64,000 bases of DNA from an uncultured Gammaproteobacteria bacterium (GCA_964427735.1 CAYRUS010000001.1:162173-226172); one strand, 5' to 3'; counted from the first letter of the stretch, positions 25,293 to 62,389 are shown. A program made the numbers and translations. The notes: a model not told the origin generated them from the sequence alone.

Positions 25293-25295
25293 AAA

Positions 25296-29206: not shown

Positions 29207-30208
29207 TCAGGAGCGATTTTGGATGTACCAGTGGATAGTTTTAGCAAGACCCTCATCAAAGCTAGTTGAAGAAATAAAGCCAAATTTTTCAGCAGCCTTC
29301 GAGGTATCTAATTTACGTCGAGGCTGTCCATCTGGTTTAGAAGTATCCCAAGCAATTCTACCTGTAAAACCAACTAGATTTTTTATTTTTCCTGCTAACT
29401 CACGAATTGAAATTTCACAACTACTGCCAACATTAATAGGATCAGAATCATCATAAAATTGTGCAGCCAAAAGTATTGCTTCAGCAGCATCTTCAACATA
29501 CAAAAACTCTCTTGTTGCACTTCCGGTTCCCCAAACTACGACTTCATCTTTTCTTGACTCCTTCGCATCGACAAATTTTTTAATAAGAGCTGGTATTACA
29601 TGGGAAGACTCAGGATCAAAATTATCACCAGGACCATAAAGATTAACTGGAAGCAGATATATACTTTCCAATCCATATTGATTTCTATAAGCATCTCCCA
29701 AAACAAGAAGCATTTTTTTTGCAAGACCGTATGGTGCATTCGTTTCTTCTGGATACCCCATCCATAAATCTTCCTCTTTAAAAGGAACTGGAGTGTTTTT
29801 GGGATACGCGCACACTGTCCCTGTTATTACAACTTTCTTTACTTTAGCCTCATTTGCCACCTGCAAAACGTTCATACCCATAATCATATTATCCTTAAAA
29901 AGCTCTACAGGATAATTCATGTTATAACCAATTCCGCCTACGTTTGCGGCTAGATGCACTACAATATCTCCACTTATTACTTTTCTTGCACTTTCTAAAT
30001 CTCCTAAATCATATTCTTTCGAAGAAAAAGTAACGATCTCCTTTGGGCTATATTCTCTTAGTTTTGCTACTAAATGACTACCTAAAAACCCAGTACCGCC
30101 AGTAATTACAACTCTTTTTCCTTCCCAAAATTCCATTCTTTCCATGCTTCTTGGTAGATATTTTGCTTCTATTCCTGGAAGTTTTTTTCTGCCTTCTTCT
30201 GTACCCAT
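29207..30208 (-). CDS. fcl: GDP-L-fucose synthase family (GDP-4-keto-6-deoxy-D-mannose 3,5-epimerase/4-reductase, Fcl/WcaG-like)
   Basis: Collinear with the E. coli Fcl sequence as I recall it: GTVCAYPK (Fcl GSSCIYPK), ETNAPYGLAKK (PTNEPYAIAKI), NLYGPGDNFDPESSHVIPALIKKF, VVVWGTGSATREFLYVEDAA, INVGSSCEISIRELA, DTSKPDGQPRRKLD. The true start is probably an internal Met (MERMEFWEGKRVVITGG); the ORF carries a 21-aa N-terminal extension. Confidence 0.8.
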   Translation of the reverse strand: MGTEEGRKKLPGIEAKYLPRSMERMEFWEGKRVVITGGTGFLGSHLVAKLREYSPKEIVTFSSKEYDLGDLESARKVISGDIVVHLAANVGGIGYNMNYPVELFKDNMIMGMNVLQVANEAKVKKVVITGTVCAYPKNTPVPFKEEDLWMGYPEETNAPYGLAKKMLLVLGDAYRNQYGLESIYLLPVNLYGPGDNFDPESSHVIPALIKKFVDAKESRKDEVVVWGTGSATREFLYVEDAAEAILLAAQFYDDSDPINVGSSCEISIRELAGKIKNLVGFTGRIAWDTSKPDGQPRRKLDTSKAAEKFGFISSTSFDEGLAKTIHWYIQNRS

Positions 30209-39875: not shown

Positions 39876-41873
39876 GTGATAAAATGTTTATACAATAATA
39901 GTATAATGGATATCATACTAACATACCTACTTTTCCCTGTTCTATGCCTATTGTTATTTATTGGAACCGGGTTACTATTACTTAAATACTTGGGTAATAA
40001 CAAATCTTATTCTTTAGAATCTATAGTTTTTGGCACTGTAATCGGGTATGTAGTGCTTAATTTAGTAGCATATTTTTTTCTAATACTTCATATTTCTTTT
40101 TGGATAATTCCATTTGGAATCGCCTTATTGATTTATCTTAATAAAGACATTTTCAACAAAATTAAAATTAATAAAACCATCTCAAGACTTGATCTTATTT
40201 CTATTGCAGTTTTTATGATTGGGGTAATTTTTCAGCTTTTAGTCATAGCTCCTAGTGGAATCACTAAAAATGGCGATTTACTGTTTTGGAGCTCTCATGG
40301 TCATGATGCAACTTGGCATATAGCTGTAATGAATAAAATTGCGGAAGGTTTTCCATTAGAAAATCCCATCTTCTCTCTAGAAAGACTTTATAACTATCAT
40401 TATTTTTTTAATATCTTGCCTGCCATATTTATGAAAAACTTCAACCTTTCTGAGATTGAAATGTACTTTCGATTGTTCCCTTTACTTTTCAGTATTCTTC
40501 TTGGCAGCACAGCATATTATCTAGGTAAGAAAGTTGGCAAGTCGCAAACGGCAGGCATTTGGAATATGTTTTTTGTATATTTTGTCGGAAGCTTTGGCTA
40601 TATAGCCACCTTAATAAAAGATGGTATAGTCGGAGGAGAAAGTATTTTCTGGGCTTCACAGGTTCATAGCTCTATTGGAAACCCACCTCAAATCATTTCA
40701 AATTTTTTGGTTTTGTCTTTTCTATATTTTATATTTGACTATTTTAATACCAAAAGAAAATCAGACTTTATTTTCTGTGTTTTAATTGCCTCAGTATTAC
40801 CTGTATTTAAGGTATATGCAGCAGTTATAGTTTTCCTTTCTTTAGGTGTTATAGCAATAATTCGTTTAATCACAGTAAAAAATTTTGATATTTTTGTAAT
40901 GACATTCATTTCTGCTCTCTTTGCAGCTGTTTTGTATTTGCCAAATACCCTGTCCTCAGCATCATTTTTAATTATTGAACCATGGTGGTATATAAGAACT
41001 ATGATTGTCTCAGAAGGACGTCTAAATTGGATTGATCACGAATTAAGAAGACAGACTTTCCTTGCTCATAACAATTATTTGAGGGTAATCCAACTAGAGT
41101 TAATAGCTTTTGTCATTTTTATAGTTGGAAACTTAGGAACACGAATAGTCGGATTAACTTATTTTATTAAAAATATTAAAAAATTCTTTGTAGATAATTT
41201 TTATGCACTATTAACCATGATTGCTACTTTTTCAGTTGTATTACCTTTGCTGTTTTTACAAAAAGGAGTAGTAAGTAATACTGCTCAATTTCTTCAATAT
41301 TTTTTGTTGACTTTTGGTATTGCTGCTTCGATTTCTATTGACGAATTACTTAAAAAAGTAAAACAAAGTCAGGCAAAAGCCGTAATAGTCCTAATACTAA
41401 TATTTATTTCTGCACCAACACAAATTGGATTGTTATTTGATTTTTACCAGAGACCTGCATTTGCTAAAGTATCAAAGCTAGAGTTAGAAGCTTTAAATTT
41501 TACGAAAATGAATTCTGCTGATTCTGATGTAATTATAGTCCCCTCATACGACCCACATACAAATACTGATGAAGAAACACCGCCAATCTGGGATTGGTTT
41601 GATACTTCGTATGTTTCCGCCTTTGCAAAAAGAAGTGTTTATTTTGCTGACTACGAGCAACTGGATATAATGGGCTATGACTTTAATGAAAGAAAAGATC
41701 TAGTAGAAAAACTGTTTAACACTAACTCCCCATCGGAGTTTGACACTTTGTTCAAAAAAAGTGGTTCTAGCATATTATACTTTCCTAAAATGATGCGTCC
41801 CGATGTATTTCTGCCAATGACTAGTTTAGAAAAAAAATATGAAAATGATGAAGTAGAAATATGGTCTTATTGA
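39876..41873 (+). CDS. Large polytopic membrane protein, unassigned family with GHDAxWHIA motif (paralog of 54619..56385); candidate novel GT-C-type transferase or polymerase
   Basis: 665 aa. SSHGHDATWHIAVMNKIAEGFPLENP after TM2. Conserved C-terminal YVSAFAKRSVYFADYEQLDIMGYDFNERKDLVEKLFNTNSP, aligned with YVSAFTKKPVYLEDEVNLTIMNYPWQERREKLDEFLKDSNSP in the partner. The real start may be the ATG at 39906 (MDIIL...). Confidence 0.5.
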   Translation: MIKCLYNNSIMDIILTYLLFPVLCLLLFIGTGLLLLKYLGNNKSYSLESIVFGTVIGYVVLNLVAYFFLILHISFWIIPFGIALLIYLNKDIFNKIKINKTISRLDLISIAVFMIGVIFQLLVIAPSGITKNGDLLFWSSHGHDATWHIAVMNKIAEGFPLENPIFSLERLYNYHYFFNILPAIFMKNFNLSEIEMYFRLFPLLFSILLGSTAYYLGKKVGKSQTAGIWNMFFVYFVGSFGYIATLIKDGIVGGESIFWASQVHSSIGNPPQIISNFLVLSFLYFIFDYFNTKRKSDFIFCVLIASVLPVFKVYAAVIVFLSLGVIAIIRLITVKNFDIFVMTFISALFAAVLYLPNTLSSASFLIIEPWWYIRTMIVSEGRLNWIDHELRRQTFLAHNNYLRVIQLELIAFVIFIVGNLGTRIVGLTYFIKNIKKFFVDNFYALLTMIATFSVVLPLLFLQKGVVSNTAQFLQYFLLTFGIAASISIDELLKKVKQSQAKAVIVLILIFISAPTQIGLLFDFYQRPAFAKVSKLELEALNFTKMNSADSDVIIVPSYDPHTNTDEETPPIWDWFDTSYVSAFAKRSVYFADYEQLDIMGYDFNERKDLVEKLFNTNSPSEFDTLFKKSGSSILYFPKMMRPDVFLPMTSLEKKYENDEVEIWSY

Positions 41874-41874
41874 T

Positions 41875-42546
41875 TTAATCCTGGCTTTTCCAAATGAAAA
41901 TTATTAATGTTATTATTAACACAGCATAAAACACCACGAATTTTGTATCAAAAATAAACTGATTAATAAAATCTTTATACACACTAGATATTAGATCAAA
42001 TTTACTTTCTGGTTTATAAATTGGCAAAATTGACAAATTACCATCAATTTTTTCTTGGTTATAAAATAAATCACTCATCCACCTCTTAAGTTCATTTGAA
42101 TAAAAAATCTGAAGAGCGTTAAGAGAATTAGATGTTGGAGAATTAATTCTTATTTCATACCATTTATTTTCTGATTCAAAAATCGGCTCAAATCTAAATT
42201 GTACAAATTCTCCGTCAGGAATATTGAGCCCATTTATATGTGATGATCTTATTAAATTATCATCTTCATAAAGCTCTAAATATATATTTTCATTATTTCT
42301 AAAATTCGGGTTTTTAATACTAGTTCCAAAGCCAATAAGGTTATTTTTGTCTGAATATATTACTTGTTTGATTTGATTGTCTTCATAGACATCTAAAGTT
42401 GCATCCAAACTAGGCTGTGAATGCAAATAAAAAGCATCAAGAGTAAATAAAATACTTATTGGAATTATTAAAATAAAAAATGCTATTAAAGTAACTGCGT
42501 ACAAAAGTACTTTAGTTTGTAATTTTTTCATTTTTGTAACATACAA
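41875..42546 (-). CDS. Hypothetical bitopic membrane protein (N- and C-terminal TM helices, central domain of about 150 aa)
   Basis: 223 aa; N-terminal VLLYAVTLIAFFILIIPISILF and C-terminal FVVFYAVLIITLIIFIW hydrophobic segments. Same topology as 9350..9910. Confidence 0.4.
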   Translation of the reverse strand: MYVTKMKKLQTKVLLYAVTLIAFFILIIPISILFTLDAFYLHSQPSLDATLDVYEDNQIKQVIYSDKNNLIGFGTSIKNPNFRNNENIYLELYEDDNLIRSSHINGLNIPDGEFVQFRFEPIFESENKWYEIRINSPTSNSLNALQIFYSNELKRWMSDLFYNQEKIDGNLSILPIYKPESKFDLISSVYKDFINQFIFDTKFVVFYAVLIITLIIFIWKSQD

Positions 42547-43732
42547 AGACAGTCAATAAACCCACAATAAACAAAATAATTTTTACTAAGTTTGTCAACA
42601 ATCCAACATCCATAATCTTACTAACAAATATGTATGGGTATGAAGCCTGATGAAATATCTGACTAATCGGAGTTAGCAAAGAAACACTTAAATATCTGTC
42701 GTTTATTAAAAGTGGCGCAACAAAACTCAAAATCATAATAACAAGAGAAGGTGCTATATATTTACTATTTCTAATAGTTAGAATAATGAGGAATGGCAAA
42801 AACCACAAGATCCACTGAATATGATAATCAACCATAGTAACTAAAAGTAAAGTTGATGACAGAAAAAATAACCAATACCCTTTAATTCTATTAATGTATA
42901 GATACAAAAATGCTATCGAATAAACTATCAAGTAATATGGAATTTTCTTGGGTAAACCGATATCTACTCCGTGTTCAAAAATCCGATTTGTTAATCCAGA
43001 AGAAAGAGAAGCATTAAAAAAATCACTACCCATAAAAGGAAGTAATATTAAAACAAATACTGCTAGCGATACTACAAAATTTATTAATTGATTCTTGAAT
43101 TTTCCCTTTGTTAAGAAAAGTACAGGAAGCAATAAAATTGGATATGCCTTAATACCCGCTCCTATAGCCAAAGACAAACCAGCGTGCAAACTCTGCTTCT
43201 TTTTTAGAAACAATAATGAAAGTATTGTAAAAAAGACAGCTAAGATATCAATGTTACTATAAAAATAAATAATAGCTATACTAAAAGGATTAAATAACCA
43301 AAAGGTAAAAGCCAACTCTTTATTCCTCTTCTTCTCAAACAATTTATAAATTAAAAATGCAATGAAAAGATCCAAAAAAAGATATGGCAACTTTAAGACA
43401 AACAGATATCTATATAAATAGTCTGTATTCTCTCCATTAAGCCAATGATAGAATTCTGAACCTAAAAATGGACTAACCACAAGCTGATAGGTTCCTAAAA
43501 AAAGATATGCAAGAGGAAAATATACAAACTCTTCTTTAAAGTGATGATTTTCTTTATTATCTTCTAGATAAGAATATATGTTAATTACTCCTGATTTTAG
43601 GTATTGTGATTGAGAATGATAAACTCTTATATCTGGGTGAAAGAAAAATGGCATTAATATAATTCTTATTAATATTGCCAGCAGCAAAAACCATCTAAGA
43701 GTTTTATTTTTTAATATTTCTTGCATTGTCAA
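42512..43732 (-). CDS. Polytopic membrane protein, possible GT-C-like transferase (DUF2029/GT87-like?)
   Basis: 406 aa with about 11 TM segments; N-terminal FFHPDIRVYHSQSQYL loop. Family assignment is tentative. Confidence 0.35.
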   Translation of the reverse strand: MTMQEILKNKTLRWFLLLAILIRIILMPFFFHPDIRVYHSQSQYLKSGVINIYSYLEDNKENHHFKEEFVYFPLAYLFLGTYQLVVSPFLGSEFYHWLNGENTDYLYRYLFVLKLPYLFLDLFIAFLIYKLFEKKRNKELAFTFWLFNPFSIAIIYFYSNIDILAVFFTILSLLFLKKKQSLHAGLSLAIGAGIKAYPILLLPVLFLTKGKFKNQLINFVVSLAVFVLILLPFMGSDFFNASLSSGLTNRIFEHGVDIGLPKKIPYYLIVYSIAFLYLYINRIKGYWLFFLSSTLLLVTMVDYHIQWILWFLPFLIILTIRNSKYIAPSLVIMILSFVAPLLINDRYLSVSLLTPISQIFHQASYPYIFVSKIMDVGLLTNLVKIILFIVGLLTVFVCYKNEKITN

Positions 43733-45377
43733 TTTTTAAATTAAAAATATAGCATCCAACTATTATAAATGCTGCAATTGAAGTCAAATCAAGAAATAAT
43801 TTAGACTTTGTTTCAGTAAAGTAATATGAAATATTGTATCTGCCTTTGTCTACGTTAAAACTTACCTGCCCATGTGGTTCTCCGGGAAATATTTCTGCTT
43901 TTTTATTGTTTATGTAAACATTCCACCCAGGGAAATAATACTTCCTTAGATTTACATTGGTTACCTGATTAACATTAATATTAGCTTCAAATTTTAATGG
44001 ATTAATCTCGATCAATTCTATTACCTCAACACCTTCACCATAAATTTCCGGCAAAACACTACTAGGTCTTTGGGAAGTATGTTTAGTAAGTCTTAAATAC
44101 TCTTCAGATGTTTCCAGATATTCTGTGCTAGCATCTGGGTAAGGAATATACCTATTTAGATAATATTCGTCTGTTCTTCCCAAGTAGTCTTGAGGATGAA
44201 AATACCTAAAAGTACTAAATATTATTAGTGCTATTAAAACAACTGACAAAATCAGCCTTTTTGAAAAATAAGATAAAGTAATTAAAAATAGTGGCGACAA
44301 AAATGTTGTTAACATTAAAAACCTCCAAGGGAATTGAAAGTACTGAATTAAAGGTACATTTTCCCAAACGAGTGCAGATCGATGATTCATCATAAAAATA
44401 CTGATCATAAAAACACTAATCATCCAAACAAAAAGTGATTTAACAAATTTATCCATCTTTTTCCATTTCAACACCAAGATCAGAATTCCAAAAGCAACTG
44501 CTAATAAATTAAACAAGCCTACAAAAAATGACATTCCATCATAAGGACCAGGCACAGAAGCTCCATAACCAAAATATGGAGTTATCAATTGTTTAATAGT
44601 AGGGAAATGATCGTAAAAATTAAAAACAGTATCAAACTTCATTAACCTACTATCTAGAATTGCAGGTAACCAAAAATAAATGCTAATGAAAAATCCAAAT
44701 AAATACATAATTAAGTAATTTTTAATTGTGTAGATATCATTATTTACGAAAATCAAAATGATAATTAAAAGAATTGAAGTAGGGATAAACATATATGCAG
44801 CAATGTTGTGGGTTAATATTAACCCTGCAATGGCAATCGCTCCTACACCAATCCACCGTCTCTCATCTTTAAAAACTTTAATAATAGATAAAATAATCAG
44901 AGGTAAAAAAACAAATGATAATATTTCACCTATAGCACCTCTAACATACAAGTCGGTTGCTCGATATGGTGTATAGGCATACAATACTCCTGCTGCTAAA
45001 GCAACAAATTTATTAGATAACTCTTTTGCCAATAGATACATAAAATATACAGAAAGAGGAATACTTAAAACAAAAACCGCTTTAATGCTGTCAACAAGAC
45101 TAAGTCCAAACAAGTTAAATATTTCAGCAAGATAAAAAGGCAAAGGGAAAACAAAATTGAAAAGCGGATATCCAAACCTAAAACTTAAATCAGGTACATA
45201 TCTTGGTGGAATTTGTCCAGAAATTAATGATCTGTGCATTTGATGTAACCAAGCAATATGAATATCATCAGATGCACCAAAATATCCAGGAACAAAAAGT
45301 GCTGAAACTGCTGGCAATGATAAGACAATTATCAATAATATTATGTATTTATCGAAATATTTTTCTAATTTTTTCAT
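43704..45377 (-). CDS. YfhO-like GT-C membrane glycosyltransferase (tandem paralog 1 of 3)
   Basis: 557 aa; N-terminal GYFGASDDIHIAWLHQMHRSLISGQIPPRYVPDLSFRFGYPLFNFVFP. C-terminal YYFPGWNVYINNKKAEIFPGEPHGQVSFNVDKGRYNISYYF resembles the FPGW ... G.H.v.f.Y C-terminal domain of YfhO-family proteins. Confidence 0.5.
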   Translation of the reverse strand: MKKLEKYFDKYIILLIIVLSLPAVSALFVPGYFGASDDIHIAWLHQMHRSLISGQIPPRYVPDLSFRFGYPLFNFVFPLPFYLAEIFNLFGLSLVDSIKAVFVLSIPLSVYFMYLLAKELSNKFVALAAGVLYAYTPYRATDLYVRGAIGEILSFVFLPLIILSIIKVFKDERRWIGVGAIAIAGLILTHNIAAYMFIPTSILLIIILIFVNNDIYTIKNYLIMYLFGFFISIYFWLPAILDSRLMKFDTVFNFYDHFPTIKQLITPYFGYGASVPGPYDGMSFFVGLFNLLAVAFGILILVLKWKKMDKFVKSLFVWMISVFMISIFMMNHRSALVWENVPLIQYFQFPWRFLMLTTFLSPLFLITLSYFSKRLILSVVLIALIIFSTFRYFHPQDYLGRTDEYYLNRYIPYPDASTEYLETSEEYLRLTKHTSQRPSSVLPEIYGEGVEVIELIEINPLKFEANINVNQVTNVNLRKYYFPGWNVYINNKKAEIFPGEPHGQVSFNVDKGRYNISYYFTETKSKLFLDLTSIAAFIIVGCYIFNLKIDNARNIKK

Positions 45378-47034
45378 GATTCAAATAAACAATTAACCCT
45401 ATTAAGGAAACCATAGAAATAATATTACTAAAAGTTCGAATCGGTGTATTAAAGAAATATCCTTCAATAGCGTTTTCCCCTTCTGCTAATGTAACAATTA
45501 TTCTCCCAAAATTGTCATATTGCGGACTCGTGTATTCTGAATTTGTTTTTACTTTCCATTCTGGAAAATAAAATATCGGAATAACCACCTCTGTTTCCTC
45601 TTGTGAATTAGCTACCATTCTAAAAAATTTAGAATTACTCTCGTACTCATTTATCTGAACGTCATCAGGAATAATAGGTAAATCAGGTGCTTGCTCTTTT
45701 GGCTCCAATGCAGTTTTTGGTAGATAGTCTAAAATTGATCCTTTTTGCTGAGTAATCCATCTAGATCCACTTAACTTTTCTTCATCAGTAACTTGATATA
45801 AATGGACTGGTCTAAAATAAGTAATGTTAAAACTAATAACAATTGCTGCTATTACTAATGCAAAAAAGGTTCTTTTGTTCTCTTTTATTAAATAAATAAA
45901 CACACCTCCAAGAATACTAATAAAAAAAGCTGTCAAACCCAAAAATCTCCAGGGGAATTGAACATATGAAAGAATATCAAATGTTTCCCAAACAAATGCT
46001 GATCTATAGTGAGTCATAAAAACAGAAAAACCAAAAAATAAAAAAGTAAATGTTGTTATTAGTTTTTTATCTTCATCTAATCTTTTTTTTATCGTTATAT
46101 TTTTGAAAATGTACTTTCTCAAACAAATCAAGAAAATAAGTGAAATTAAAATCATCAAGTGAATCCAACCAATTTGAAAAGATAAACTATCATTGTCACC
46201 AGGAACTGAAGCCCCAAATCCCCAGGTATTTGAAAAAAACAACTGCTTTATATTTACAAAATGACCACGATAATTTAAATCAAATCGAGTTAGTGTTTCT
46301 GTTTGAACAAGATTTTTTTCAAAAAATGCTGGCAATACAAAAAATGTAGCTAAACCAAAACCAAGAAAAAGAGACAAAAGCAACTGATAAAAATTTTCCC
46401 TTTTACTAATTAAATATAAATATGCGATCGACACAAGGATAATAGGAGTAAAAAGCAAAGTAGATATGTTATGTGTCAATAAAAATAAACAAAATGATAC
46501 AGAAAGTCCTAAAATATTAAACTTTGATGGCTTTTTTGCCAGGGCAAAAATAAAGTAAAAAATAAATGGAATAATTCCTAAAGCAAAACTTTCAGACAAT
46601 GCGCCTCTAACATACGTATCCACAGCCTTATATGGAGAATAAGTATACAAAACCCCAGAAATAAATCCTGCATTTTTCCCAAACCATTCTTTAACAAACA
46701 AATACATCCCGATGCCTGAAAACATCTGGGGTAATATAAATAATATCTTTGCAGTATTTATGTAACTAAAAAAATAACTTATTAATCCGCCTAAGTAATA
46801 TGGAAAAACACTGTAGTAGTTAAAAAGAGGATATCCATATCCAAACCCCATATCAGGAACCCATCTACATGGGATTTGAAAATCAGAAAAACACTTTCTC
46901 ATTTCATAGATCCTTATTATCTGCAAGTCATCATGGTGTGGAAAGTATCCTTTTGAAAAAAGAGGAATTACAGTAAACAAAGAAACTAATGTAAGAACTA
47001 TTAGCTGCCAGTTTTTTTGTATAGTAATTTTCAT
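45349..47034 (-). CDS. YfhO-like GT-C membrane glycosyltransferase (tandem paralog 2 of 3)
   Basis: 561 aa; GYFPHHDDLQIIRIYEMRKCFSDFQIPCRWVPDMGFGYGYPLFNYY; C-terminal FYFPEWKVKTN ... GENAIEGYFFNTP. Confidence 0.5.
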   Translation of the reverse strand: MKITIQKNWQLIVLTLVSLFTVIPLFSKGYFPHHDDLQIIRIYEMRKCFSDFQIPCRWVPDMGFGYGYPLFNYYSVFPYYLGGLISYFFSYINTAKILFILPQMFSGIGMYLFVKEWFGKNAGFISGVLYTYSPYKAVDTYVRGALSESFALGIIPFIFYFIFALAKKPSKFNILGLSVSFCLFLLTHNISTLLFTPIILVSIAYLYLISKRENFYQLLLSLFLGFGLATFFVLPAFFEKNLVQTETLTRFDLNYRGHFVNIKQLFFSNTWGFGASVPGDNDSLSFQIGWIHLMILISLIFLICLRKYIFKNITIKKRLDEDKKLITTFTFLFFGFSVFMTHYRSAFVWETFDILSYVQFPWRFLGLTAFFISILGGVFIYLIKENKRTFFALVIAAIVISFNITYFRPVHLYQVTDEEKLSGSRWITQQKGSILDYLPKTALEPKEQAPDLPIIPDDVQINEYESNSKFFRMVANSQEETEVVIPIFYFPEWKVKTNSEYTSPQYDNFGRIIVTLAEGENAIEGYFFNTPIRTFSNIISMVSLIGLIVYLNHEKIRKIFR

Positions 47035-47040
47035 AAAATA

Positions 47041-48756
47041 TTAAGTTTCTCTCTTTTTATAATAGATAAAAGTTAACATGATCATACTTCCGAGACTCAA
47101 AATATTTCCAACAGTCTGCGCTGTCGTATCTTCTAATCTGATTTCTACATTATGGTTTCCAGGTGGTAATTCAAAAGTAACCAGCCCTAGACAAAACTCC
47201 TGTTCTCTACAATCATCATTTATATGATCAATAACTTCTCCATCGGAATAAACTGTCATACCTGGAAAATCATATATAGGAGCTCTTATTAATGCATCCT
47301 CAGAGACATTTATTGGACCCATCTGATAGTTGCTACCTTTTTTATAACTACCTATTTCAGCATTTCCTTCAAGTATTTCTGGCTTTTCCGGAGCTTTTTC
47401 TATTGGAGGTAGATCTGCTGATTTGGGCAGATAATCAAAGATGCTAATTGTAAGTTGCTTTTCCCACAAGTTACCAGAAAACTTATCCGCGTCAGATATA
47501 TAATACCACTCTTTTACTCTGAAAAACCCAATATTTAGTAGGATTGCTAGGATAATAATTATTATTCCTATGATATATTTTTTAAAGCCGCCAAACATTG
47601 AGATACCCACGCCAGCTATGATTGGCAATAGAAATATGCTCACAGCCATAAAACGCCACGGAAACTGTAACCAAGCTAGAAAATGTAGTCTTTCCCATAT
47701 AAACATTGACCTTAGATGCATCAAAAATAAAGTAAATACTTCAAGTCCTAAAAGAAGCAATAAAAGTAGAGATAATTTTCTATTTTTGTTTATTTTGAAT
47801 AAGGCAACAATTCCTACAATTATCGCAAATAACCAATGAATATTTCCTGTTGATAAATTAAGAAGTTCATCTGGAAAGCCAGAAGACCCATATCCCCACT
47901 CTCGTGAAATAAACATGTCATACAGGTTTACGAAATGCTTTCTGTAATCAAAGTAACCCATCAACATAGTTTCTATATGCACATATTTTTGTTCGAGTAT
48001 TGCAGGAAGCACAAAATACGAAGCAAAACAAAAACCTAACACTCCACTTAGTACTATTTTGGGAAATACATCCTTCCACTTTTTTTCAGTAAACAACCAA
48101 TACAAAACCCAAAATAAGGAAGGAATAACAAATATTAGTGACATAAGACTATGTGTCATCAACAACAAACCAACTGATAATGAAAGCCATACAAGGTATT
48201 TATTTTTGTTAGTTTTTATTAGTTTATATGAAGACCAAAATATTAGTGGGAAAAACACTAAAGCCCAAAACTCACTCAAAGCTCCTCTTACATAAACCTC
48301 AACTGCTTTGTATGGAATATATGTATAAAATATTGCTGCAACAATTCCTTCCCATTTACCTGCAATCTCTTTAACTAAAATAAACATGGTTAAAGCTGAC
48401 AAAATATAACCCAACATAAAAAGTATCTTTACAGAATCAATAAACTGAAAGCCTAATAAATGAATTAATTCTCCGATGTAGTAAACACTAGGCGGATAAA
48501 AGTTAAACTGAGGGTATCCATACTGATATCCAGCATCCGGTACCCATCTACAGGGAATTTGAAAATCCTTGAAACATTCATGCATTTGATGAATCCTAAA
48601 TGCCTGAAGATCATCTTGCATAAAAAAATATCCACTCCTCATAAGCGGAATAAAAGAAGGAGATATGATCAAAATGATAAAGACTGTTGTCCAAGAAAAT
48701 CCCACTAACTTTATATAAGACTTTATTTTTTTTATTAGCTGCTGAGCTTTTTCCAT
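47041..48756 (-). CDS. YfhO-like GT-C membrane glycosyltransferase (tandem paralog 3 of 3)
   Basis: 571 aa; GYFFMQDDLQAFRIHQMHECFKDFQIPCRWVPDAGYQYGYPQFNFY; C-terminal YDFPGMTVYSDGEVIDH ... PPGNHNVEIRLEDT. Confidence 0.5.
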   Translation of the reverse strand: MEKAQQLIKKIKSYIKLVGFSWTTVFIILIISPSFIPLMRSGYFFMQDDLQAFRIHQMHECFKDFQIPCRWVPDAGYQYGYPQFNFYPPSVYYIGELIHLLGFQFIDSVKILFMLGYILSALTMFILVKEIAGKWEGIVAAIFYTYIPYKAVEVYVRGALSEFWALVFFPLIFWSSYKLIKTNKNKYLVWLSLSVGLLLMTHSLMSLIFVIPSLFWVLYWLFTEKKWKDVFPKIVLSGVLGFCFASYFVLPAILEQKYVHIETMLMGYFDYRKHFVNLYDMFISREWGYGSSGFPDELLNLSTGNIHWLFAIIVGIVALFKINKNRKLSLLLLLLLGLEVFTLFLMHLRSMFIWERLHFLAWLQFPWRFMAVSIFLLPIIAGVGISMFGGFKKYIIGIIIIILAILLNIGFFRVKEWYYISDADKFSGNLWEKQLTISIFDYLPKSADLPPIEKAPEKPEILEGNAEIGSYKKGSNYQMGPINVSEDALIRAPIYDFPGMTVYSDGEVIDHINDDCREQEFCLGLVTFELPPGNHNVEIRLEDTTAQTVGNILSLGSMIMLTFIYYKKRET

Positions 48757-49550
48757 TTTTGTCCTGACAATGATATAAGATATATCAGATAGTGTCCCAA
48801 CAAACCATGATAAATTTTACTAGAAGGAATTAACCGCTTCCACTGATCTTTACCTTTTGCTAAGTTTCTACCACTAGCTCCATGGTGATGAACCACAATA
48901 GACTTCGGGTTGTAAAAAACTTTGAGTCCTGCTTTGTGTACTCGCTTACAATAATCAAGATCCTCAAAGTACATAAAATACCTCTCATCAAGTAGACCAA
49001 CTTTTTTTATAGCTGTTGGTGTAATTAAAAATGCTGCACCAACCAAAGCATTTACTTCGACTGAGATATCACCCTCTGGAGCAAATTTACTAAAATATCC
49101 TTCCTCTCCAAACCAATACTCTTTTATTGCGTTTCGGATTGTAGGGAAAACAAAACACGATGGCTGAAGACTTCCATCACTATTTAAAAGCCTTGATCCT
49201 ACAACTCCTACATCCTTAGTGTTTTTAGCAAACTCTAAGAGCTCAGAAATTGCATTTGCTTTTATTTCAGTATCAGAATTTAAAAGAAATATATATTTTG
49301 ATTTCGCCTCTTTAATTCCAATATTATTTGCTTTTGAAAAACCAAGGTTACTTGAGTTTTTAATAAAGAAAAGATTCTTATATTCTTTTTCCAATTTCTC
49401 TAGTTTTTCTACGCTTTGATCATAAGATCCGTTATCAATAAGAATTATTTCAAAGTTGAGGTTTTTCTCACATTTGAATATAGACTTTACACAAGCTACA
49501 GTCAGTTCAGGTGTGTTGTAATTTACAATAATAATAGAAACATCTTTCAT
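48735..49550 (-). CDS. Glycosyltransferase family 2
   Basis: VSIIIVNYNTPELT ... IILIDNGSYDQS ... LLNSDTEI. Confidence 0.8.
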   Translation of the reverse strand: MKDVSIIIVNYNTPELTVACVKSIFKCEKNLNFEIILIDNGSYDQSVEKLEKLEKEYKNLFFIKNSSNLGFSKANNIGIKEAKSKYIFLLNSDTEIKANAISELLEFAKNTKDVGVVGSRLLNSDGSLQPSCFVFPTIRNAIKEYWFGEEGYFSKFAPEGDISVEVNALVGAAFLITPTAIKKVGLLDERYFMYFEDLDYCKRVHKAGLKVFYNPKSIVVHHHGASGRNLAKGKDQWKRLIPSSKIYHGLLGHYLIYLISLSGQKWKKLSS

Positions 49551-54124: not shown

Positions 54125-54622
54125 TTATTGTACACTACTCATAGAATTTATGACCTTCTGCAATTCATCATATACATTTTCAGAAGTTAGGTTAGTAGTA
54201 TCAATGGAAAAATCAACTTGTTTTTTCTGATATGCTTTTGCAAGAATATCCTTATAAAGTAAATAATTCCTTTTGAATCTATCTGCCTTTATAGAATCTC
54301 CATCTCTTTTTCTCTTCCTTTCAAGGAGGGTGTTTTCATTTGCATGCATTTCGATTATAAAAAAGTTATTATTCTTTAATATCTCAATTTGTTCCAAATC
54401 CAAAAACGAAATAACAAACAACAAATTATCTTTATCGATTATACGCCTAATTGATTCTTCGAATAGTTCATCTATTATTTCTTCTTCCTCTGGCCAAAAA
54501 TCACCATTTAATTTATAAACAAGATCATCCGCCTCTATTAGTTCTAAATTAAAAGCTTCAGCCAATTTTTTTGCTATTGTCGACTTTCCTGATCCTGTAA
54601 TTCCAAGCAAAACTATTTTCAT
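54125..54622 (-). CDS. Small P-loop NTPase, shikimate/gluconate-kinase-like fold (kinase-like; paralog of 58907..59410)
   Basis: 165 aa; Walker A LLGITGSGKST; IEADDL after beta-2; LERKRKRDGDS LID-like segment. Embedded in the GT gene run with 4-bp overlaps on both sides. Confidence 0.55.
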   Translation of the reverse strand: MKIVLLGITGSGKSTIAKKLAEAFNLELIEADDLVYKLNGDFWPEEEEIIDELFEESIRRIIDKDNLLFVISFLDLEQIEILKNNNFFIIEMHANENTLLERKRKRDGDSIKADRFKRNYLLYKDILAKAYQKKQVDFSIDTTNLTSENVYDELQKVINSMSSVQ

Positions 54623-56385
54623 AAAACTTCATAAATTATCACTTCTTCATTATCAAAAATGTTATCGATCCTAAGCGCGTTTTCATCTAGCCCAACTCCC
54701 GACCTCTTAACTAAGTAAATGTAATCTATTTCTTCATCACGCAGAAAAGCAAATCCTTCTGGAGAATTGCTGTCTTTCAAGAATTCATCTAGCTTCTCTC
54801 GTCTTTCTTGCCATGGATAGTTCATGATTGTTAAATTAACTTCATCTTCCAGATATACAGGCTTTTTTGTAAATGCTGATACATAGGCTGTAGAGTCATA
54901 CATAAACAAAGGCTTTGGTGCTTCTGCCTCGCGACCTAAGTAATTCATTCCAATAGGCTGAGCTGACAACACGATCCCCTTCGGCTCTTTTTCTAAAAAT
55001 TTTAATGCTTCAATCTCATAATTAGAAATTTTAGCCGGAGGAGTATTGGTGTAATAGTGTCTTATCGTAGTAAGAGTTGTCGGCAAGGTAAGGAGTATTG
55101 TTAAAATGGTAAAAATCTTACCAAAATTTGAGTTAATTTGGGTCAATAATTTTATAAGCTCAGGCATAGCAACCCCGGCAAGAAGACCTGAAAAAAACAA
55201 TGAATAATAAGTAAACTGAATAGTGTTCCAGGCAGTGCCACTTTGCACAAATAATATTGGGACAACTATTCCTGCTAATATTACTGTGCCAATAAACACT
55301 TCTATCCAACCTAGTTTTCTAAAATTTCTTATCCAATTAACTATAGCTAAACTACTCACTACCCTTGTTCCAAGGTTACCAAACCAAAATATTAAAAATG
55401 CGAAAATGTAAAGAATTAACGCTTTATAAATAATTCCACCCTGCCTTGTTGTAAGCATTGCCCTAGAGTACCAATCCCAATGCAACCTATCTCCATAAGT
55501 CATCAAGCCTTCTAAAAACCAAAATGGTGAATAAGATATTAATCTTCCTGAACTTGGAATAACAAAAAACATTAATATCGCCACAAATAGTGTACATCCA
55601 AAAAGATAGAGAAAAATCCTGCTTTTCTTCTTAAGCCACAAATAGATACTTGTAACAAAAAGTCCTGTCAGAACAAGCAATCCAGCATAAATTTTTATTT
55701 GGATAAGTAAACCAAATAAAATTCCAGCTATTATAATTTTTTTAAACGCTATCTTTTTGATATTTTGAATTATTAACATTCCTAACAATAAAACAACAAT
55801 AGACAAGGCAAAAGGCGGATTAACCAAGGTTGTGGCAGATGACTGAGCCCAAAACATAGAATCTCCTCCAAGCCGACCATACCGAACCAAATGTACCAAC
55901 CACCCCCAACCACCACCAAAGTAAACAAAAAAAACTGCCCAAAAAGCAGCAAGGCTTGACTTAGTCCAACTATAAACAAATTTATAAGAAAAAAGACCAA
56001 TTAAAAAAGCAAACACTGGTGGCAAAACTTGAAAGTACAAAAACCTAACAGGAATAAAAGTAATTTTATGAAGCAAAGCAACAAACACGTCAAAACCAAT
56101 ATGGTAATTTTGTAAAGTAAAACCTGATAAAACTGGTATCTCAGTGGATCCCCTTGATAAAGACTCAATTAATGCAATATGCCAGACAGCATCATGACCG
56201 TGAGCTCCCCAAAACCCCATTCCATATTTATAAATCAATCCACTTTTTATAGTTGTTAAATACCATATAAAAGTACCTATAAAAATAAGCAGCAAGGCTT
56301 TTTTGTCAACTTCTTGAAATAAATAATTTAGTACTTTTTTTAACATCTTCCTTAATAGATGAACCCACAAGAACAAGTATTGCAC
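54619..56385 (-). CDS. Large polytopic membrane protein, GHDAxWHIA family (paralog of 39876..41873)
   Basis: 588 aa; WGAHGHDAVWHIALIESLSRG and the conserved C-terminal YVSAFTKKPVYLEDEVNLTIMNYPWQERREKLDEFLKDSNSP. The start is probably the internal Met at 56346 (MLKKVLN...), which reduces the overlap with the upstream flippase gene. Confidence 0.5.
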   Translation of the reverse strand: MQYLFLWVHLLRKMLKKVLNYLFQEVDKKALLLIFIGTFIWYLTTIKSGLIYKYGMGFWGAHGHDAVWHIALIESLSRGSTEIPVLSGFTLQNYHIGFDVFVALLHKITFIPVRFLYFQVLPPVFAFLIGLFSYKFVYSWTKSSLAAFWAVFFVYFGGGWGWLVHLVRYGRLGGDSMFWAQSSATTLVNPPFALSIVVLLLGMLIIQNIKKIAFKKIIIAGILFGLLIQIKIYAGLLVLTGLFVTSIYLWLKKKSRIFLYLFGCTLFVAILMFFVIPSSGRLISYSPFWFLEGLMTYGDRLHWDWYSRAMLTTRQGGIIYKALILYIFAFLIFWFGNLGTRVVSSLAIVNWIRNFRKLGWIEVFIGTVILAGIVVPILFVQSGTAWNTIQFTYYSLFFSGLLAGVAMPELIKLLTQINSNFGKIFTILTILLTLPTTLTTIRHYYTNTPPAKISNYEIEALKFLEKEPKGIVLSAQPIGMNYLGREAEAPKPLFMYDSTAYVSAFTKKPVYLEDEVNLTIMNYPWQERREKLDEFLKDSNSPEGFAFLRDEEIDYIYLVKRSGVGLDENALRIDNIFDNEEVIIYEVL

Positions 56386-57790
56386 TCATATAAACAAACC
56401 CACCCACTATAATTAATATCCAAACTGAAGTCATTGTGTAGCTCAATTGTTCTCTCAAAAGATACGTAATTAATGTCATAACAAGTGTTGCAATCATTGG
56501 CTTTACAAATGATTTTACAAAAGAAAACTTTACATATCTTCGTACAACAATTACTGCAATTATCGAACTCACTGAAACCAAAGCATAGCCTGATGCGGCA
56601 CCGTTAACCCCATAACGCATTGCCAAAACTGGTATAAAAATCCAGGACAAAGTGGTCCACATAACCATGAGTTTAAAGGTGGTTTTGATTTTGCCGATTG
56701 CATTAAGAAGATTAGTGAGCTGTGTCGTTACTGATGCAAAAACAGTATTTATTCCAATAATGCCCAAGGCAACCAAAGCAGGCTGCCATTTTTCATATCG
56801 TGGAATTACTTCTATAAGTACAGGTGCCAAAATGAGCAATCCTGCTAGAGATGGAAAAACCAAAAATGTAATAAAGAAAATTGAACGTTCTAAACTCCTC
56901 TGCAAATGTTCTTTTTCGTCTTGCATTCTGGAAAATGCCGGGAATGTTACTTTTATTACATGATCCATAAAAAACCGCAAAGGTGCTTGCCCCCACTTTT
57001 GCGCCCATCCAAGTAAACCAAGACCACTAGAACCAAGAATACCTCCTAAAACTGCAGTCATCCCATCATCTTTGAGCGTAGCCAAAAGTGTGTTTGCCTG
57101 ATAAGGCACGCCATAAGCTAATAGTTTTTTTAGGGATTTTTTTGAAAAGGCAAAACCTGGAATCCACGGTTTAAGTGCGTACATAGAAACTAAACCTACA
57201 ACTCCTCTCAAAATCACGGCATAGGCAAAACTCAGCACTCCATATCCACTCCAGGCAAAATAAACAGCCGAAATATTGTAAACAAGGTTTTCCAATACCT
57301 GCGGTATTACCAGCTTTCCAAAATCAAGTTCACGTTCAAGTAATACTGAAGGGATTGTCTTAAGCGATGAAAGGAAAAATGAAATTCCTAATGCATATAA
57401 GAGCATTTTTCCTTCATTGCTTAAATTGTATACATCAGAAAGCACTGGGCTTGCTAAAAATAAAACTAAAATAAGTGCAATTACTAATATTTGTTGAACT
57501 GTAAAGGTGGTTTTTAAGTCTTTATCTGTAATAGATTCTTTTTTCTGAATTAATGCAGCTGCAAGTCCAACATCACTAAAATATGCTAAAAAGTTCACTA
57601 CAGCAGACACAATCCAAAATACACCAAATTCATCAGGCTCTAAGAATACTGTCAAAAATCCTGTTGCTACAAGTGATAGAACCGAGAGCAAAAAAGTTCT
57701 TCCAGTAAGAATAACAACACCTCTTACAGCACGCTTTTTTACATTTTCAAGAGTGATTTCTGAAGTTGGGTCTAGATGTTCATCTTCCAC
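56306..57790 (-). CDS. Wzx-type oligosaccharide flippase (MOP superfamily), second copy
   Basis: 494 aa with about 12-14 TM segments; N-terminal KKRAVRGVVILTGRTFLLSVLSLVATGFLTVFLEPDEFGVFWIVSAVVNFLAYFSDVGLAAALIQ, the classic polysaccharide-biosynthesis-protein signature. Confidence 0.75.
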   Translation of the reverse strand: MEDEHLDPTSEITLENVKKRAVRGVVILTGRTFLLSVLSLVATGFLTVFLEPDEFGVFWIVSAVVNFLAYFSDVGLAAALIQKKESITDKDLKTTFTVQQILVIALILVLFLASPVLSDVYNLSNEGKMLLYALGISFFLSSLKTIPSVLLERELDFGKLVIPQVLENLVYNISAVYFAWSGYGVLSFAYAVILRGVVGLVSMYALKPWIPGFAFSKKSLKKLLAYGVPYQANTLLATLKDDGMTAVLGGILGSSGLGLLGWAQKWGQAPLRFFMDHVIKVTFPAFSRMQDEKEHLQRSLERSIFFITFLVFPSLAGLLILAPVLIEVIPRYEKWQPALVALGIIGINTVFASVTTQLTNLLNAIGKIKTTFKLMVMWTTLSWIFIPVLAMRYGVNGAASGYALVSVSSIIAVIVVRRYVKFSFVKSFVKPMIATLVMTLITYLLREQLSYTMTSVWILIIVGGFVYMSAILVLVGSSIKEDVKKSTKLFISRS

Positions 57791-60020: not shown

Positions 60021-61607
60021 TTACCTCACTCTTAAAAACAACAATTCTTCTACACTCCCATCAGGTTTTTGTGCTTTTGGAAATAATTCAATCAAATTAA
60101 GTTCTTCTGTATTGTGTCCAATCTGATGTCTTGTATTATTAATGACTAAATAAGTCTTATTTCCAGATTCTACTGATTCTTTCAAACTTTCAGGCACTTC
60201 GTTAAGACCAAGCCCTATCCCTTTTACAATTATTTCAGGGTAATTTTGAAGATATATTTGCAAGCCGTCTGGCAAAGTACCGAAATATCCTTCTGTACCA
60301 ACAACTATTCCTTGATTAGGATCTTTGTCGTACTCTTTAATTAAGTGCCCGGAAACCTCTCTTATACCATGACCTGCTGTCCATTCTTCGAGGTAACCGG
60401 ATCTTTCACTTCTTGGTAAAGGAGCTCTTTCAACACTTGTTAAAAGTAAATAGTTTGTATATATGCTTTGTAATAAAAAAATAAGTGAAGTTAAATATAT
60501 CAATGTAGATTTTCCTTTTTTGATAAGTAATATTGCAGGTGAAGAAAGCAAGATAAGATAAGGAAAAGTAAAATAAATGTAACGAGCAGTCATTGTTTTT
60601 GAATACATAGCAACTGCAATTAGAGGAATCAACCACCATAACAAGACTACTAAAAATTCTTTTTTAAATTTCTTGAAAAAAGATAGTTTTGATATAAAGG
60701 CAAGAATTATTAAACCAACAGGAGCAAGAAGTATATAGTAATTTATCATTGCACCTAGATGAGAAATAAACGGATTAAAAGGCTCTTTTAGAATATGCGA
60801 ATAAGGGTAAACATAATCAAAGTTTCTACTCGAGAGTAAATGGAAATTTGGACCAAGACGCAAGATGTTGTACATAATAAAAGCTACAACCACTGAAAGT
60901 AGCAATAGCCCTCCTGCAACAAATAAATTTTTGGGTGTTTTTTTGCTCCAATTAGCTAAAATCAGCAAAGTAGGCATAAGAATAATAAAAAATATAGCTG
61001 GAGATTTGGTTAGCCACGCTGCACCTAAAGCAAACCCCGTAAATAAAGCCGTATCTATACGCTTGTGTTTAACAGTTAATATTCCAAAAACAAAAGACAA
61101 AGTCCCAAACATAGAAAGCATCGAGTCCACCAAAGCTAATCGATCATAAAAAACACTAAATGGCGACAATGCATACAAAAACGCTGCAAATAGTGCAGCT
61201 TTTTTTGAATTAAAAAGAAGATACGAAGCTGTAAATATTCCCAAAAGCGTAACAATACCTGTCAAAACTGATAAGAATCTACCTGCAATAAGAGGATCGC
61301 TAAAGAGCGATAACATTGGCCATAAAGTCCACATAAATAGAGGCTGTTTACCATCTGAAAGAGGGATGAACCTGAGTGTTGGCTCGTTTTTTATAATTTG
61401 TGCCCATCTCACATAAATTGCTTCATCTGCGAAAACTGGAAGTTCATTTAAATTATAAAACCTAATTACTGAAGAAAAAAGAATTATTAGAAGCAGTACA
61501 AATATAGTTTTTTCCCACTTTTTATAAAATTTTAAAAAACCTTCAGAATTCATAAGTGATATGTTTTGATTCCCCTTGCAGGGAGTCTCCCTGCAAGATA
61601 GTCGCAC
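60021..61607 (-). CDS. GT-C membrane glycosyltransferase, ArnT/PMT-like (GT83/GT39-like)
   Basis: N-terminal loop NELPVFADEAIYVRWAQII with the D-E dyad; 500+ aa polytopic. The probable true start is the Met at 61553 (MNSEGFLKFYKK). The annotated 18-aa extension MRLSCRETPCKGNQNISL is encoded by the GC-rich palindrome and is likely non-coding. Confidence 0.7.
   Translation of the reverse strand: MRLSCRETPCKGNQNISLMNSEGFLKFYKKWEKTIFVLLLIILFSSVIRFYNLNELPVFADEAIYVRWAQIIKNEPTLRFIPLSDGKQPLFMWTLWPMLSLFSDPLIAGRFLSVLTGIVTLLGIFTASYLLFNSKKAALFAAFLYALSPFSVFYDRLALVDSMLSMFGTLSFVFGILTVKHKRIDTALFTGFALGAAWLTKSPAIFFIILMPTLLILANWSKKTPKNLFVAGGLLLLSVVVAFIMYNILRLGPNFHLLSSRNFDYVYPYSHILKEPFNPFISHLGAMINYYILLAPVGLIILAFISKLSFFKKFKKEFLVVLLWWLIPLIAVAMYSKTMTARYIYFTFPYLILLSSPAILLIKKGKSTLIYLTSLIFLLQSIYTNYLLLTSVERAPLPRSERSGYLEEWTAGHGIREVSGHLIKEYDKDPNQGIVVGTEGYFGTLPDGLQIYLQNYPEIIVKGIGLGLNEVPESLKESVESGNKTYLVINNTRHQIGHNTEELNLIELFPKAQKPDGSVEELLFLRVR
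61575..61597. promoter_or_regulatory. Perfect GC-rich 23-bp palindrome (CTTGCAGGGAG-T-CTCCCTGCAAG) in the intergenic region between the DPM1-like GT2 gene and the ArnT-like gene
   Basis: Read directly from the sequence: 11-bp arms at 61575-61585 and 61587-61597 are exact reverse complements. It is strongly GC-rich in an AT-rich genome. No T-tract follows on either strand. Confidence 0.5.
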
Positions 61608-61630
61608 AATGATTTAATCCTATTTCCAAT

Positions 61631-62389
61631 TTAAACTTTGTACATGCCAAAAATGGCATTTAGCCTTACCCTCATTAAATCTCTAAATCCTTCCCATGAG
61701 TCTTTGATCGCACTAACTCTTTCTGTCCCTTTGTGGTGCCAAATAACTGGAACTTCAGCAACTTTATATCCGAGTTTTCTTGCTATATAAAGCATTTCGA
61801 GATCAAACCCTGCGTTTACTGCAGCACCTTGAACAGCTTTCTTTTCATCAAATATTTTCATTCTTTTAAATATATTTTCTGATGCTTCTCTGGTAAATGC
61901 TTTAAAACCACATTGAGTATCTTTGAAAGGTAAACCCAAAATTATATTCCTAAGAGTAGCAAATCCCCAACCCATTAGTTTACGTACAAATGGAGCACCT
62001 TTTCTTCCCTTTCGTGAACCAATCACGCCATCATATCCTTGTTCAAACTTTGGTAGCAGCTTTTCAATCTGATTAATTGGCGTTGCCTGATCCATGTCTG
62101 TAAACAAAACAATATCTCCTTTGGCAGCTAACATCCCAGCAATGACTGTTCCACCTTTGCCTCTATGAGGTTCTTTTAAAGCACGGACATTTTTATGAGA
62201 TTTTACAAATTTTTCGACTAATTTTAAGGTGTTATCTGTTGACTCATCATCTACGATTAGAAGCTCCCAGGAATACTTTTGTTTATTTAAATAGTCCCAT
62301 ACTTCTTGTAAAACTCCTTTATTGAGATTTTCTTCCTCATTGTAAGCAGGAATTACAACAGATAGTTTTTTAAATTTCATTCTCATCAT
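61631..62389 (-). CDS. Polyprenyl-phosphate sugar synthase (GT2; DPM1/ArnC/GtrB-like)
   Basis: LSVVIPAYNEEENL ... LLIVDDESTDNT ... LFTDMDQATP (DxD) ... TQCGFKAF. Same architecture as dolichyl/undecaprenyl-phosphate glycosyltransferases, immediately upstream of the ArnT-like GT-C gene. Confidence 0.8.
   Translation of the reverse strand: MMRMKFKKLSVVIPAYNEEENLNKGVLQEVWDYLNKQKYSWELLIVDDESTDNTLKLVEKFVKSHKNVRALKEPHRGKGGTVIAGMLAAKGDIVLFTDMDQATPINQIEKLLPKFEQGYDGVIGSRKGRKGAPFVRKLMGWGFATLRNIILGLPFKDTQCGFKAFTREASENIFKRMKIFDEKKAVQGAAVNAGFDLEMLYIARKLGYKVAEVPVIWHHKGTERVSAIKDSWEGFRDLMRVRLNAIFGMYKV

Follow-up and report, generated by a model that had tools for sequence, protein, structure and literature searches.

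Three tandem paralogous membrane proteins with a predicted GT-C fold form a conserved module in Microgenomates glycan loci

In mycobacteria, the three-gene operon embCAB encodes tandem paralogous GT-C arabinosyltransferases, of which EmbA and EmbB form a heterodimer, and in Bacillus, Staphylococcus and Listeria CsbB and YfhO glycosylate teichoic acids from C55-polyprenyl phosphate-linked N-acetylglucosamine (C55-P-GlcNAc). Transmembrane glycosylation systems such as GtrA/B/C, GacI/J/K/L, CsdAB/CD/EF and PpgS-Rv3632-Rv3779 pair a GT-A with a GT-C enzyme, and each uses one GT-C protein, of the PMT_2 or YfhO type. Here, we describe a locus that encodes three GT-C-type membrane proteins of a different family in series. 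It lies in a stretch of 64,000 nucleotides (GCA_964427735.1 CAYRUS010000001.1:162173-226172; the window), deposited under the name of an uncultured Gammaproteobacteria bacterium, and we call the three genes A, B and C in transcription order, all on the minus strand. By mechanism, their closest characterised relatives are the GT-C enzymes YfhO, GtlB, GacL and Rv3779. We consider it probable that A, B and C are three non-redundant GT-C glycosyltransferases that depend on lipid-phosphate sugars and decorate or extend a surface glycan.

An earlier reading of the window from its sequence alone (the sequence-only reading) had placed three consecutive proteins of about 560 residues at 43704-48756, and the listing of open reading frames (ORFs) agrees with it to the nucleotide (Table 1). 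The three are full-length paralogs with a similarity far above chance: in full-length pairwise BLASTP, A and B share 36% identity (E 1e-103), B and C 32% (E 1e-68) and A and C 29% (E 2e-61). The genes are tightly packed, with an overlap of 22 nucleotides between the upstream GT2 gene and A, a gap of 6 nucleotides between A and B, and overlaps of 29 nucleotides both between B and C and between C and the GT87-like gene that follows. Because scanning 41.5-58.2 kb for promoters and terminators gave counts equal to chance, the operon structure is read from this packing only. All three proteins carry the GYFxxxDD, QIP(C/P)R(W/Y)VPD and GYP(L/Q)FN motifs, whose shared N-terminal DD, QIPxR(W/Y)VPD and GYPxFN elements the sequence-only reading had recognised, as well as TH(N/S), YVRGAxxE and the invariant QFPWRF, of which it had listed neither of the last two. 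Its C-terminal motif stands in part: FP(G/E)(W/M) is present in each protein (FPGM in A, FPEW in B, FPGW in C), and the trailing H-x-V/I...Y is not conserved. Protein A is distinguished by an additional Cys-containing insertion (DDCR..FC.GL) within its C-terminal beta-sandwich; C lacks the pair Cys48/Cys56 that A and B share and carries EEYLRL in place of DYLP. A family profile search found no fourth member within the window, and four large membrane proteins lacking Pfam matches were ruled out as members by the same means (Table 1).

What fold do these proteins adopt? An AlphaFold2 model of B, the one paralog modelled, was built from a 39-sequence alignment and reached a predicted local distance difference test (pLDDT) score of 86.5 and a predicted template modelling (pTM) score of 0.90. 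It has 12 transmembrane (TM) helices, a structured first outer loop directly after TM1 that bears the DD pair, and a beta-sandwich at about residues 408-530 (45445-45813; strands 459-527) that is inserted between TM11 and the final TM helix (531-551). In Foldseek, all top matches of this model are GT-C enzymes, the EmbA-EmbB structures 7bvc and 7bvf are among its structural matches, and the outer domain is similar to the accessory beta-sandwiches of glycoside hydrolases. The charge distribution agrees with the model: short loops and termini are rich in Lys and Arg and long loops are acidic, which by the positive-inside rule puts the DD loop outside. The TM core of the trio is thus predicted to have a GT-C fold of the GT-C_A class, in an architecture of 12 TM helices with cytoplasmic N- and C-termini, in which the last helix would anchor an outward-facing beta-sandwich of about 125 residues. 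Model, Foldseek and Pfam clan matches agree with the sequence-only reading that the proteins are GT-C membrane enzymes, the model together with the positive-inside rule supports the extracytoplasmic C-terminal domain that it proposed, and the structure predicted for B is of the GT-C type and not a transporter fold.

Pfam matches of the trio are confined to PF10131 (PTPS_related) and PMT_2, both of which belong to the GT-C clan (PMC7801869). With a gathering cut-off of 26.4 bits, PF10131 recognises B clearly (39.7 bits) and A marginally (26.9 bits) and misses C (16.4 bits); PMT_2 scores 29.9 bits in A and 25.4 bits, below its cut-off, in C. As the PF10131 alignment stops at about position 316 of the 621 in the model for A, B and C alike, covering positions from about 1 onward, the C-terminal half of the trio proteins differs from that of PF10131. 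The C-terminal domains alone gave no Pfam match at E<=10, NCBIfam returned nothing useful for the trio, and a PDB sequence search with the three-paralog profile found nothing meaningful (best E 0.5, EmrA). Among 19 orthologs, PF10131 was matched in 16 (E<=1, best 3e-13), PMT_2 in eight, YfhO weakly in three (best E 3.4e-5) and STT3 in one. Nearly all database homologs carry a precomputed PF10131 annotation, and NCBI names some of them '6-pyruvoyl-tetrahydropterin synthase-related protein'. The sole paper found to name PF10131 does so incidentally and lists it as 'function unknown' (PMC7801869); the literature searched held no functional study of PF10131 or of GT-C enzymes from the candidate phyla radiation (CPR). 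By sequence, the trio appears to be a divergent Microgenomates subfamily with motifs of its own (QIPCRWVPD, QFPWRF, FPGW) that is closest to PF10131.

Residue conservation was assessed across 93 orthologs whose orthogroup could be typed with confidence (34 A, 29 B and 30 C; B numbering). D35, R57, K96, R143, E148, H188, S345, W349 and Q359-F-P-W-R363 are invariant in every orthogroup; D35 is kept in 93/93 orthologs and its neighbour D36 in 86/93. In the model of B, R57, K96, R143, E148, H188 and the QFPWR segment, all polar and invariant, are arranged as a ring on the outer face of the membrane. Since the putative catalytic residues are invariant in all three orthogroups, none of A, B and C is a degenerate copy, and all three look catalytically intact; a non-catalytic paralog was ruled out on the same grounds. 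At the same time each group has signatures of its own, which indicate subfunctionalisation: the Cys48/Cys56 pair is present in the A and B groups and not in C, DYLP in A and B stands against EYLRLP in C, the FP motif reads FPGM in A, FPNW in B and FPGW in C, and the Cys-containing insertion in the beta-sandwich marks the A group.

The sequence-only reading had called the triplication unusual, and here it did not hold: many genomes of Microgenomates, a CPR group, carry A-B-C as a conserved module in synteny. The matches listed in a word-indexed search include more than 3,355 homologs, and an exhaustive search with the three-paralog profile gave 17,184 clusters (50% identity) at E<=1e-3 and 5,617 at E<=1e-30, with Microgenomates, Woesebacteria, Daviesbacteria and similar groups as named sources. 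At least 549 loci occur in species-representative genomes, one genome per species. In all five related long contigs that were compared, the B homolog is flanked by two genes for proteins of about 560 residues, with a fourth copy in one of them, and the order A-B-C is the same in 5/5. Their identity matrix resolves three orthogroups by position (46-80% identity within a position, 26-40% between positions). When the best 80 of the at least 549 loci were typed with sub-family hidden Markov models, 22 had the arrangement ABC, five ABCB, two ABCA and three ACB; about 39 were single-copy, mostly from Collier-, Ames- and Shapirobacteria, with nearly equal A and B scores. The fixed order A-B-C occurs in about 30 of these 80 species genomes, and almost all of them are Microgenomates. 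The wider locus is syntenic in the related loci L006 and L007, where a Wzx gene, a gene for about 576 residues, three GT2 genes, a GT4 gene and two GT2 genes precede A-B-C, and a GT87-like gene, a gene for about 200 residues, one for about 610-655 residues on the opposite strand and PMT_2 genes follow. The window likewise has five GT2 genes and one GT4 gene immediately upstream of the trio, as the sequence-only reading had noted in calling it a neighbour of many GT2 genes. Rather than a local anomaly, the trio is an old module with a fixed gene order that belongs to one clade of Microgenomates.

As a separate observation on the source of these sequences, the record titles 'uncultured Gammaproteobacteria' or 'Pseudomonadales' stand on many third-party annotation (TPA) 'binchicken' or co-assembly metagenome-assembled genomes (MAGs) that carry a Microgenomates-type locus (e.g. 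L009, L010, L012 and L025). L025 is the same contig as the CPR-like locus L005, and such titles look like placeholder or wrong taxonomy.

The exhaustive profile search also yielded natural gene fusions, two of which, B-C and one GT2-A, were examined in their contig context. In-frame GT2-A fusions form four independent 50%-identity clusters (P0125, P0129, P0138 and P0227), in which the GT2 part finds its best window match, at 34-59% identity, in the 271-residue GT2 next to A and the window order is kept. Protein P0164 joins a family member to a PgfS/ArnC/AglJ-like polyprenyl-phosphate-sugar-synthase GT2 that is closest to PgfS. An in-frame B-C fusion (P0123) occurs on three contigs; of these, two were examined, one from an NCBI MAG and one from a Logan read-set assembly, and their neighbouring genes are the same. 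Other proteins combine two or three family copies, or join a PMT_2 enzyme to a family member, and the largest multi-copy chain, of 3,329 residues, holds two full copies and other GT-C-like parts; further fusion proteins are P0183, P0185 and the putative singletons P0142, P0177 and P0124, with loci L088-L090. All fusion junctions respect the N-in/C-in topology. Gene-calling artefacts were considered as a source of the fusions; the three contigs with B-C and the recurrence of GT2-A in four clusters speak against them. From the GT2 fusions we infer that the family works with GT2 partners, lipid-phosphate-sugar synthases included, and the GT-C/GT-C fusions suggest that adjacent GT-C enzymes act in one pathway. 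The GT-A/GT-C pairing of known transmembrane glycosylation systems is echoed by these fusions.

The surroundings of the trio point in the same direction. The window (GC content about 31%) is almost wholly a glycan super-locus on the minus strand, with about 12 GT2, nine GT4 and at least 12 GT-C-type membrane proteins, and the parts list of the transmembrane systems named above (synthase-like GT2s, DUF2304, Wzx and GT-C proteins) is all in it. A gene for a PpgS/AglJ-like GT2 is translationally coupled to one for a small DUF2304 membrane protein (Table 1), an arrangement that we take to match the GacI/GacJ and PpgS/Rv3632 polyprenyl-phosphate-N-acetylhexosamine synthases, here in a CPR genome. 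Among the genes of the window, this pair is the strongest candidate for the synthase of a polyprenyl-phosphate-sugar donor; 15 kb separate it from the trio, to which its link is presumed. The window and 5/5 related loci each have a Wzx/MOP flippase gene no more than about 10 kb away from the trio, and the one at 56306-57790 is a candidate flippase for the lipid-linked substrate of the trio. The GT87-like gene directly downstream of the trio recurs in that position in loci L001, L006, L007 and L089.

Table 1. Coordinates of the trio, its motifs and other features of the window (single positions where no range is given)
Feature	Coordinates	Strand	Residues	Remarks
Paralog A	47041-48756	-	571	Putative GT-C glycosyltransferase, orthogroup A
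Paralog B	45349-47034	-	561	Putative GT-C glycosyltransferase, orthogroup B
Paralog C	43704-45377	-	557	Putative GT-C glycosyltransferase, orthogroup C, most divergent
Motifs of A	DD 48610-48615; QIPCRWVPD 48535-48561; QFPWRF 47650-47667; FPGM within 47257-47274	-
Motifs of B	DD 46927-46932; QFPWRF 45943-45960	-		DD in first outer loop
Motifs of C	DD 45264-45269; QFPWRF 44319-44336	-		Also QIPPRYVPD and FPGW
GT2	48735-49550	-	271	Immediately upstream of A; orthologs fused to A-type GT-C
GT87-like polytopic membrane protein	42512-43732	-	406	Another GT-C family; overlaps C
PpgS/AglJ-like GT2	28511-29206	-	231	E 2.2e-37, full-length match
DUF2304 small membrane protein	28161-28514	-	117	E 1.7e-19
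Wzx/MOP-type flippase (Polysacc_synt_3)	56306-57790	-		One of two Wzx flippases
Wzx flippase	26097			The other of the two
PMT_2 genes	5582, 12802, 33409, 35000, 36514, 38181, 60021			GT-C type
PIG-V-like gene	30254			GT-C type
GT2/PMT_2 pair	60021-62389			Second such pair
Wzy_C protein	7041-8492
ABC-2/ABC pair	24567-26063
Mannose-1-phosphate nucleotidyltransferase-like gene	211-1299
Epimerase	29207-30208
Polytopic membrane protein	54619-56385	-	588	No Pfam or NCBIfam match; ruled out as family member
Polytopic membrane protein	39876-41873	+	665	No Pfam or NCBIfam match; ruled out as family member
Large ORF	14210-15898	-	562	No Pfam match; ruled out as family member
Large ORF	17811-19850	+	679	No Pfam match; ruled out as family member
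Large ORF	62426-63964	-	512	No Pfam match
ORF	41875-42546	-	223	No Pfam match; directly downstream of GT87-like gene
ORF	9350-9910	-		No Pfam match

How might three such enzymes act in series? In the scheme that we favour, a cytoplasmic GT2 would load a sugar onto polyprenyl phosphate, the lipid-linked sugar would be flipped across the membrane, here probably by a Wzx-type flippase in the role proposed for GacK (PMC8035078), and each paralog would transfer the sugar at the outer leaflet onto a surface glycan or, less likely, onto protein. D35 and D36 may be the acids that act in catalysis or bind a metal, the lipid phosphate may be bound by the invariant basic residues and the beta-sandwich may hold the acceptor. 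The three paralogs would then perform three different transfers, distinct in sugar, linkage or acceptor site, within one pathway, and they are possibly physically associated. That the donor is lipid-linked is suggested by the P0164 fusion, the GT2-A fusions, the pair of PpgS-like GT2 and DUF2304 protein, and the presence of two Wzx flippases.

Several points weigh against this scheme. No member of the trio family or of PF10131 has been characterised in the literature searched. The GT2 that adjoins A, or is fused to it, resembles glycan-acting GT2s more than polyprenyl-phosphate-sugar synthases (the 271-residue protein matches a rhamnosyltransferase model at E 9e-21, ArnC at 3e-8 and PgfS at 1e-8), so GT2 and A may not be a pair of donor synthase and transferase. 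At its distance from the trio, the PpgS-like pair stands among at least 10 other GT-C genes as possible clients. The scan of the window ORFs, which did not include every small one, found no GtrA-type flippase; Wzx-type flippases are present. Lastly, the paralogs need not form an obligate complex, because single-copy relatives exist and one GT2-A fusion, on a 5-kb contig, has neither B nor C beside the fusion gene.

In organisation, embCAB is the closest analogy to the trio. Both consist of three tandem, co-oriented GT-C paralogs with all active sites intact, each with an extracytoplasmic beta-sandwich domain, in a cell-wall polysaccharide locus and with the logic of a lipid-phosphate-sugar donor. 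However, Emb proteins have about 1,100 residues, 15 TM helices and two carbohydrate-binding modules, compared with about 560 residues and 12 TM helices in the trio, and neither the Arabinose_trans Pfam domain nor the length or the C-terminal carbohydrate-binding modules of the Emb type were found in A, B or C. The analogy raises the question of whether the trio is an obligate hetero-oligomeric GT-C machine, similar to EmbA-EmbB (7bvc, 7bvf) or Pmt1-Pmt2 (6p2r) as precedents of tandem GT-C heteromers, that polymerises or elongates a lineage-specific cell-wall polymer processively. The fixed A-B-C order with overlapping or near-abutting frames, the B-C fusion in independent assemblies and the multi-copy fusions would fit such a machine, but about half of the related genomes have a single copy, ACB and four-copy variants occur, the isolated GT2-A fusion just described has no adjacent partner, and full active sites in all three proteins are equally expected of independent enzymes. 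We therefore regard an obligate machine as conceivable but doubtful. A bolder proposal, that the trio is a lineage-defining, physically associated Microgenomates assembly line, a hetero-oligomer sometimes fused covalently as B-C and sometimes to its own GT2, which builds or elongates a novel cell-wall glycopolymer peculiar to these ultra-small bacteria and represents a new, functionally definable GT-C family to be separated from PF10131, is likewise tentative, and we would not expect it to hold in full.

Three non-redundant enzymes acting on a surface glycan, as we prefer, also have to be set against oligosaccharyltransferases or protein O-glycosyltransferases of the STT3/AglB/PglB or PMT type that would glycosylate surface or S-layer proteins. 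The weak PMT_2 matches lean this way, as does the GT2 part of P0164, whose closest relative PgfS belongs to a streptococcal protein O-glycosylation system. Yet a WWDYG-type motif (WWD or W[WF]D[YWF]) is present in 0/93 orthologs, the STT3 family matches a single ortholog of the 19, a small all-beta sandwich (about 125 residues) stands where oligosaccharyltransferases have a mixed alpha/beta C-terminal domain, MIR domains are lacking, and the genomic context is a polysaccharide-type locus with Wzx, Wzy and ABC genes. Protein glycosylation by the trio is, on balance, unlikely.

The sequence-only reading had assigned the trio to the YfhO family (PF09586), with teichoic acids glycosylated from C55-P-sugar donors. 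Trio and YfhO are alike in being GT-C proteins with, presumably for the trio, a polyprenyl-phosphate-sugar donor. According to one paper (PMC5836110), the YfhO of B. subtilis has an extracellular loop of 389 residues between its last two TM helices, and no catalytic motif conserved in YfhO could be identified. The outer domain of the trio is likewise placed between TM11 and TM12, but it spans only about 125 residues in proteins of about 560, compared with about 790-860 for YfhO, and the first outer loop bears the invariant DD. A, B and C have no match to PF09586 (gathering score 28.5 bits) at E<=0.1, PF10131, which the sequence-only reading had also proposed to check, being the better match, whereas a genuine YfhO in locus L007 (3562-5928; 788 residues), which served as a positive control, scores 103.8 bits (E 1.1e-29). 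This separate gene is inserted among GT2 and GT4 genes of an otherwise syntenic locus, a few kb upstream from A-B-C, and since L007 carries both, the YfhO family and the trio family coexist and are distinct. A relation can nonetheless be detected: hhalign aligns the 19-sequence family profile with the L007 YfhO at 96% probability (E 2.6e-9, 244 columns), and apart from the three weakly matching orthologs faint PF09586 matches occur in other homologs. The alignment, however, is confined to the TM core and includes neither the motifs of the first outer loop nor the C-terminal domain, and the relation is, by profile comparison, a remote, clan-level homology. The partners also differ, YfhO working with the membrane-anchored CsbB and the GtrA-type GtcA, the trio being accompanied by a soluble GT2 and Wzx: the adjoining GT2 is of the Glyco_tranf_2_3 type, not of the CsbB type with a C-terminal TM anchor, and neither a CsbB-type GT2 nor a GtrA flippase adjoins the trio. 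Genes for the synthesis of teichoic acids were not seen in the window, and such polymers are not known from Microgenomates-type organisms. Because PF09586 fails and only the TM core aligns, the YfhO assignment named the right clan and a similar architecture, and the same general mechanism class, but the wrong family; as family membership it is, judged on these comparisons, largely refuted, and teichoic-acid glycosylation by the trio is very improbable.

The rest of the locus holds further proteins that escape current family models. The 588- and 665-residue polytopic membrane proteins, encoded on opposite strands, are paralogs of each other (30% identity, E 4e-71); both have the motif FW(G/S)(A/S)HGHDA.WHIA in their first loop and a soluble part at the C-terminus. 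Genes without Pfam matches and of matching size and position occur in the related loci, one of about 575 residues next to Wzx and one of about 610-655 residues that follows the GT87-like gene on the opposite strand, and this family may comprise polymerases, ligases or another GT-C type. The 223-residue protein downstream of the GT87-like gene also has positional counterparts of about 200 residues in related loci. Another three large ORFs of the glycan locus, and one smaller one at 9350-9910, have no Pfam match (Table 1).

Cell envelopes of CPR organisms are almost unstudied. The trio forms a core that is conserved widely among Microgenomates glycan loci; it extends the known multi-component scheme of transmembrane glycosylation and overturns no concept. 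With clear motifs, three paralogs that look intact and natural fusions to GT2 partners, its family offers a tractable entry to a surface-glycan pathway of the CPR, and if the proposed role is true, PF10131 would gain its first function.

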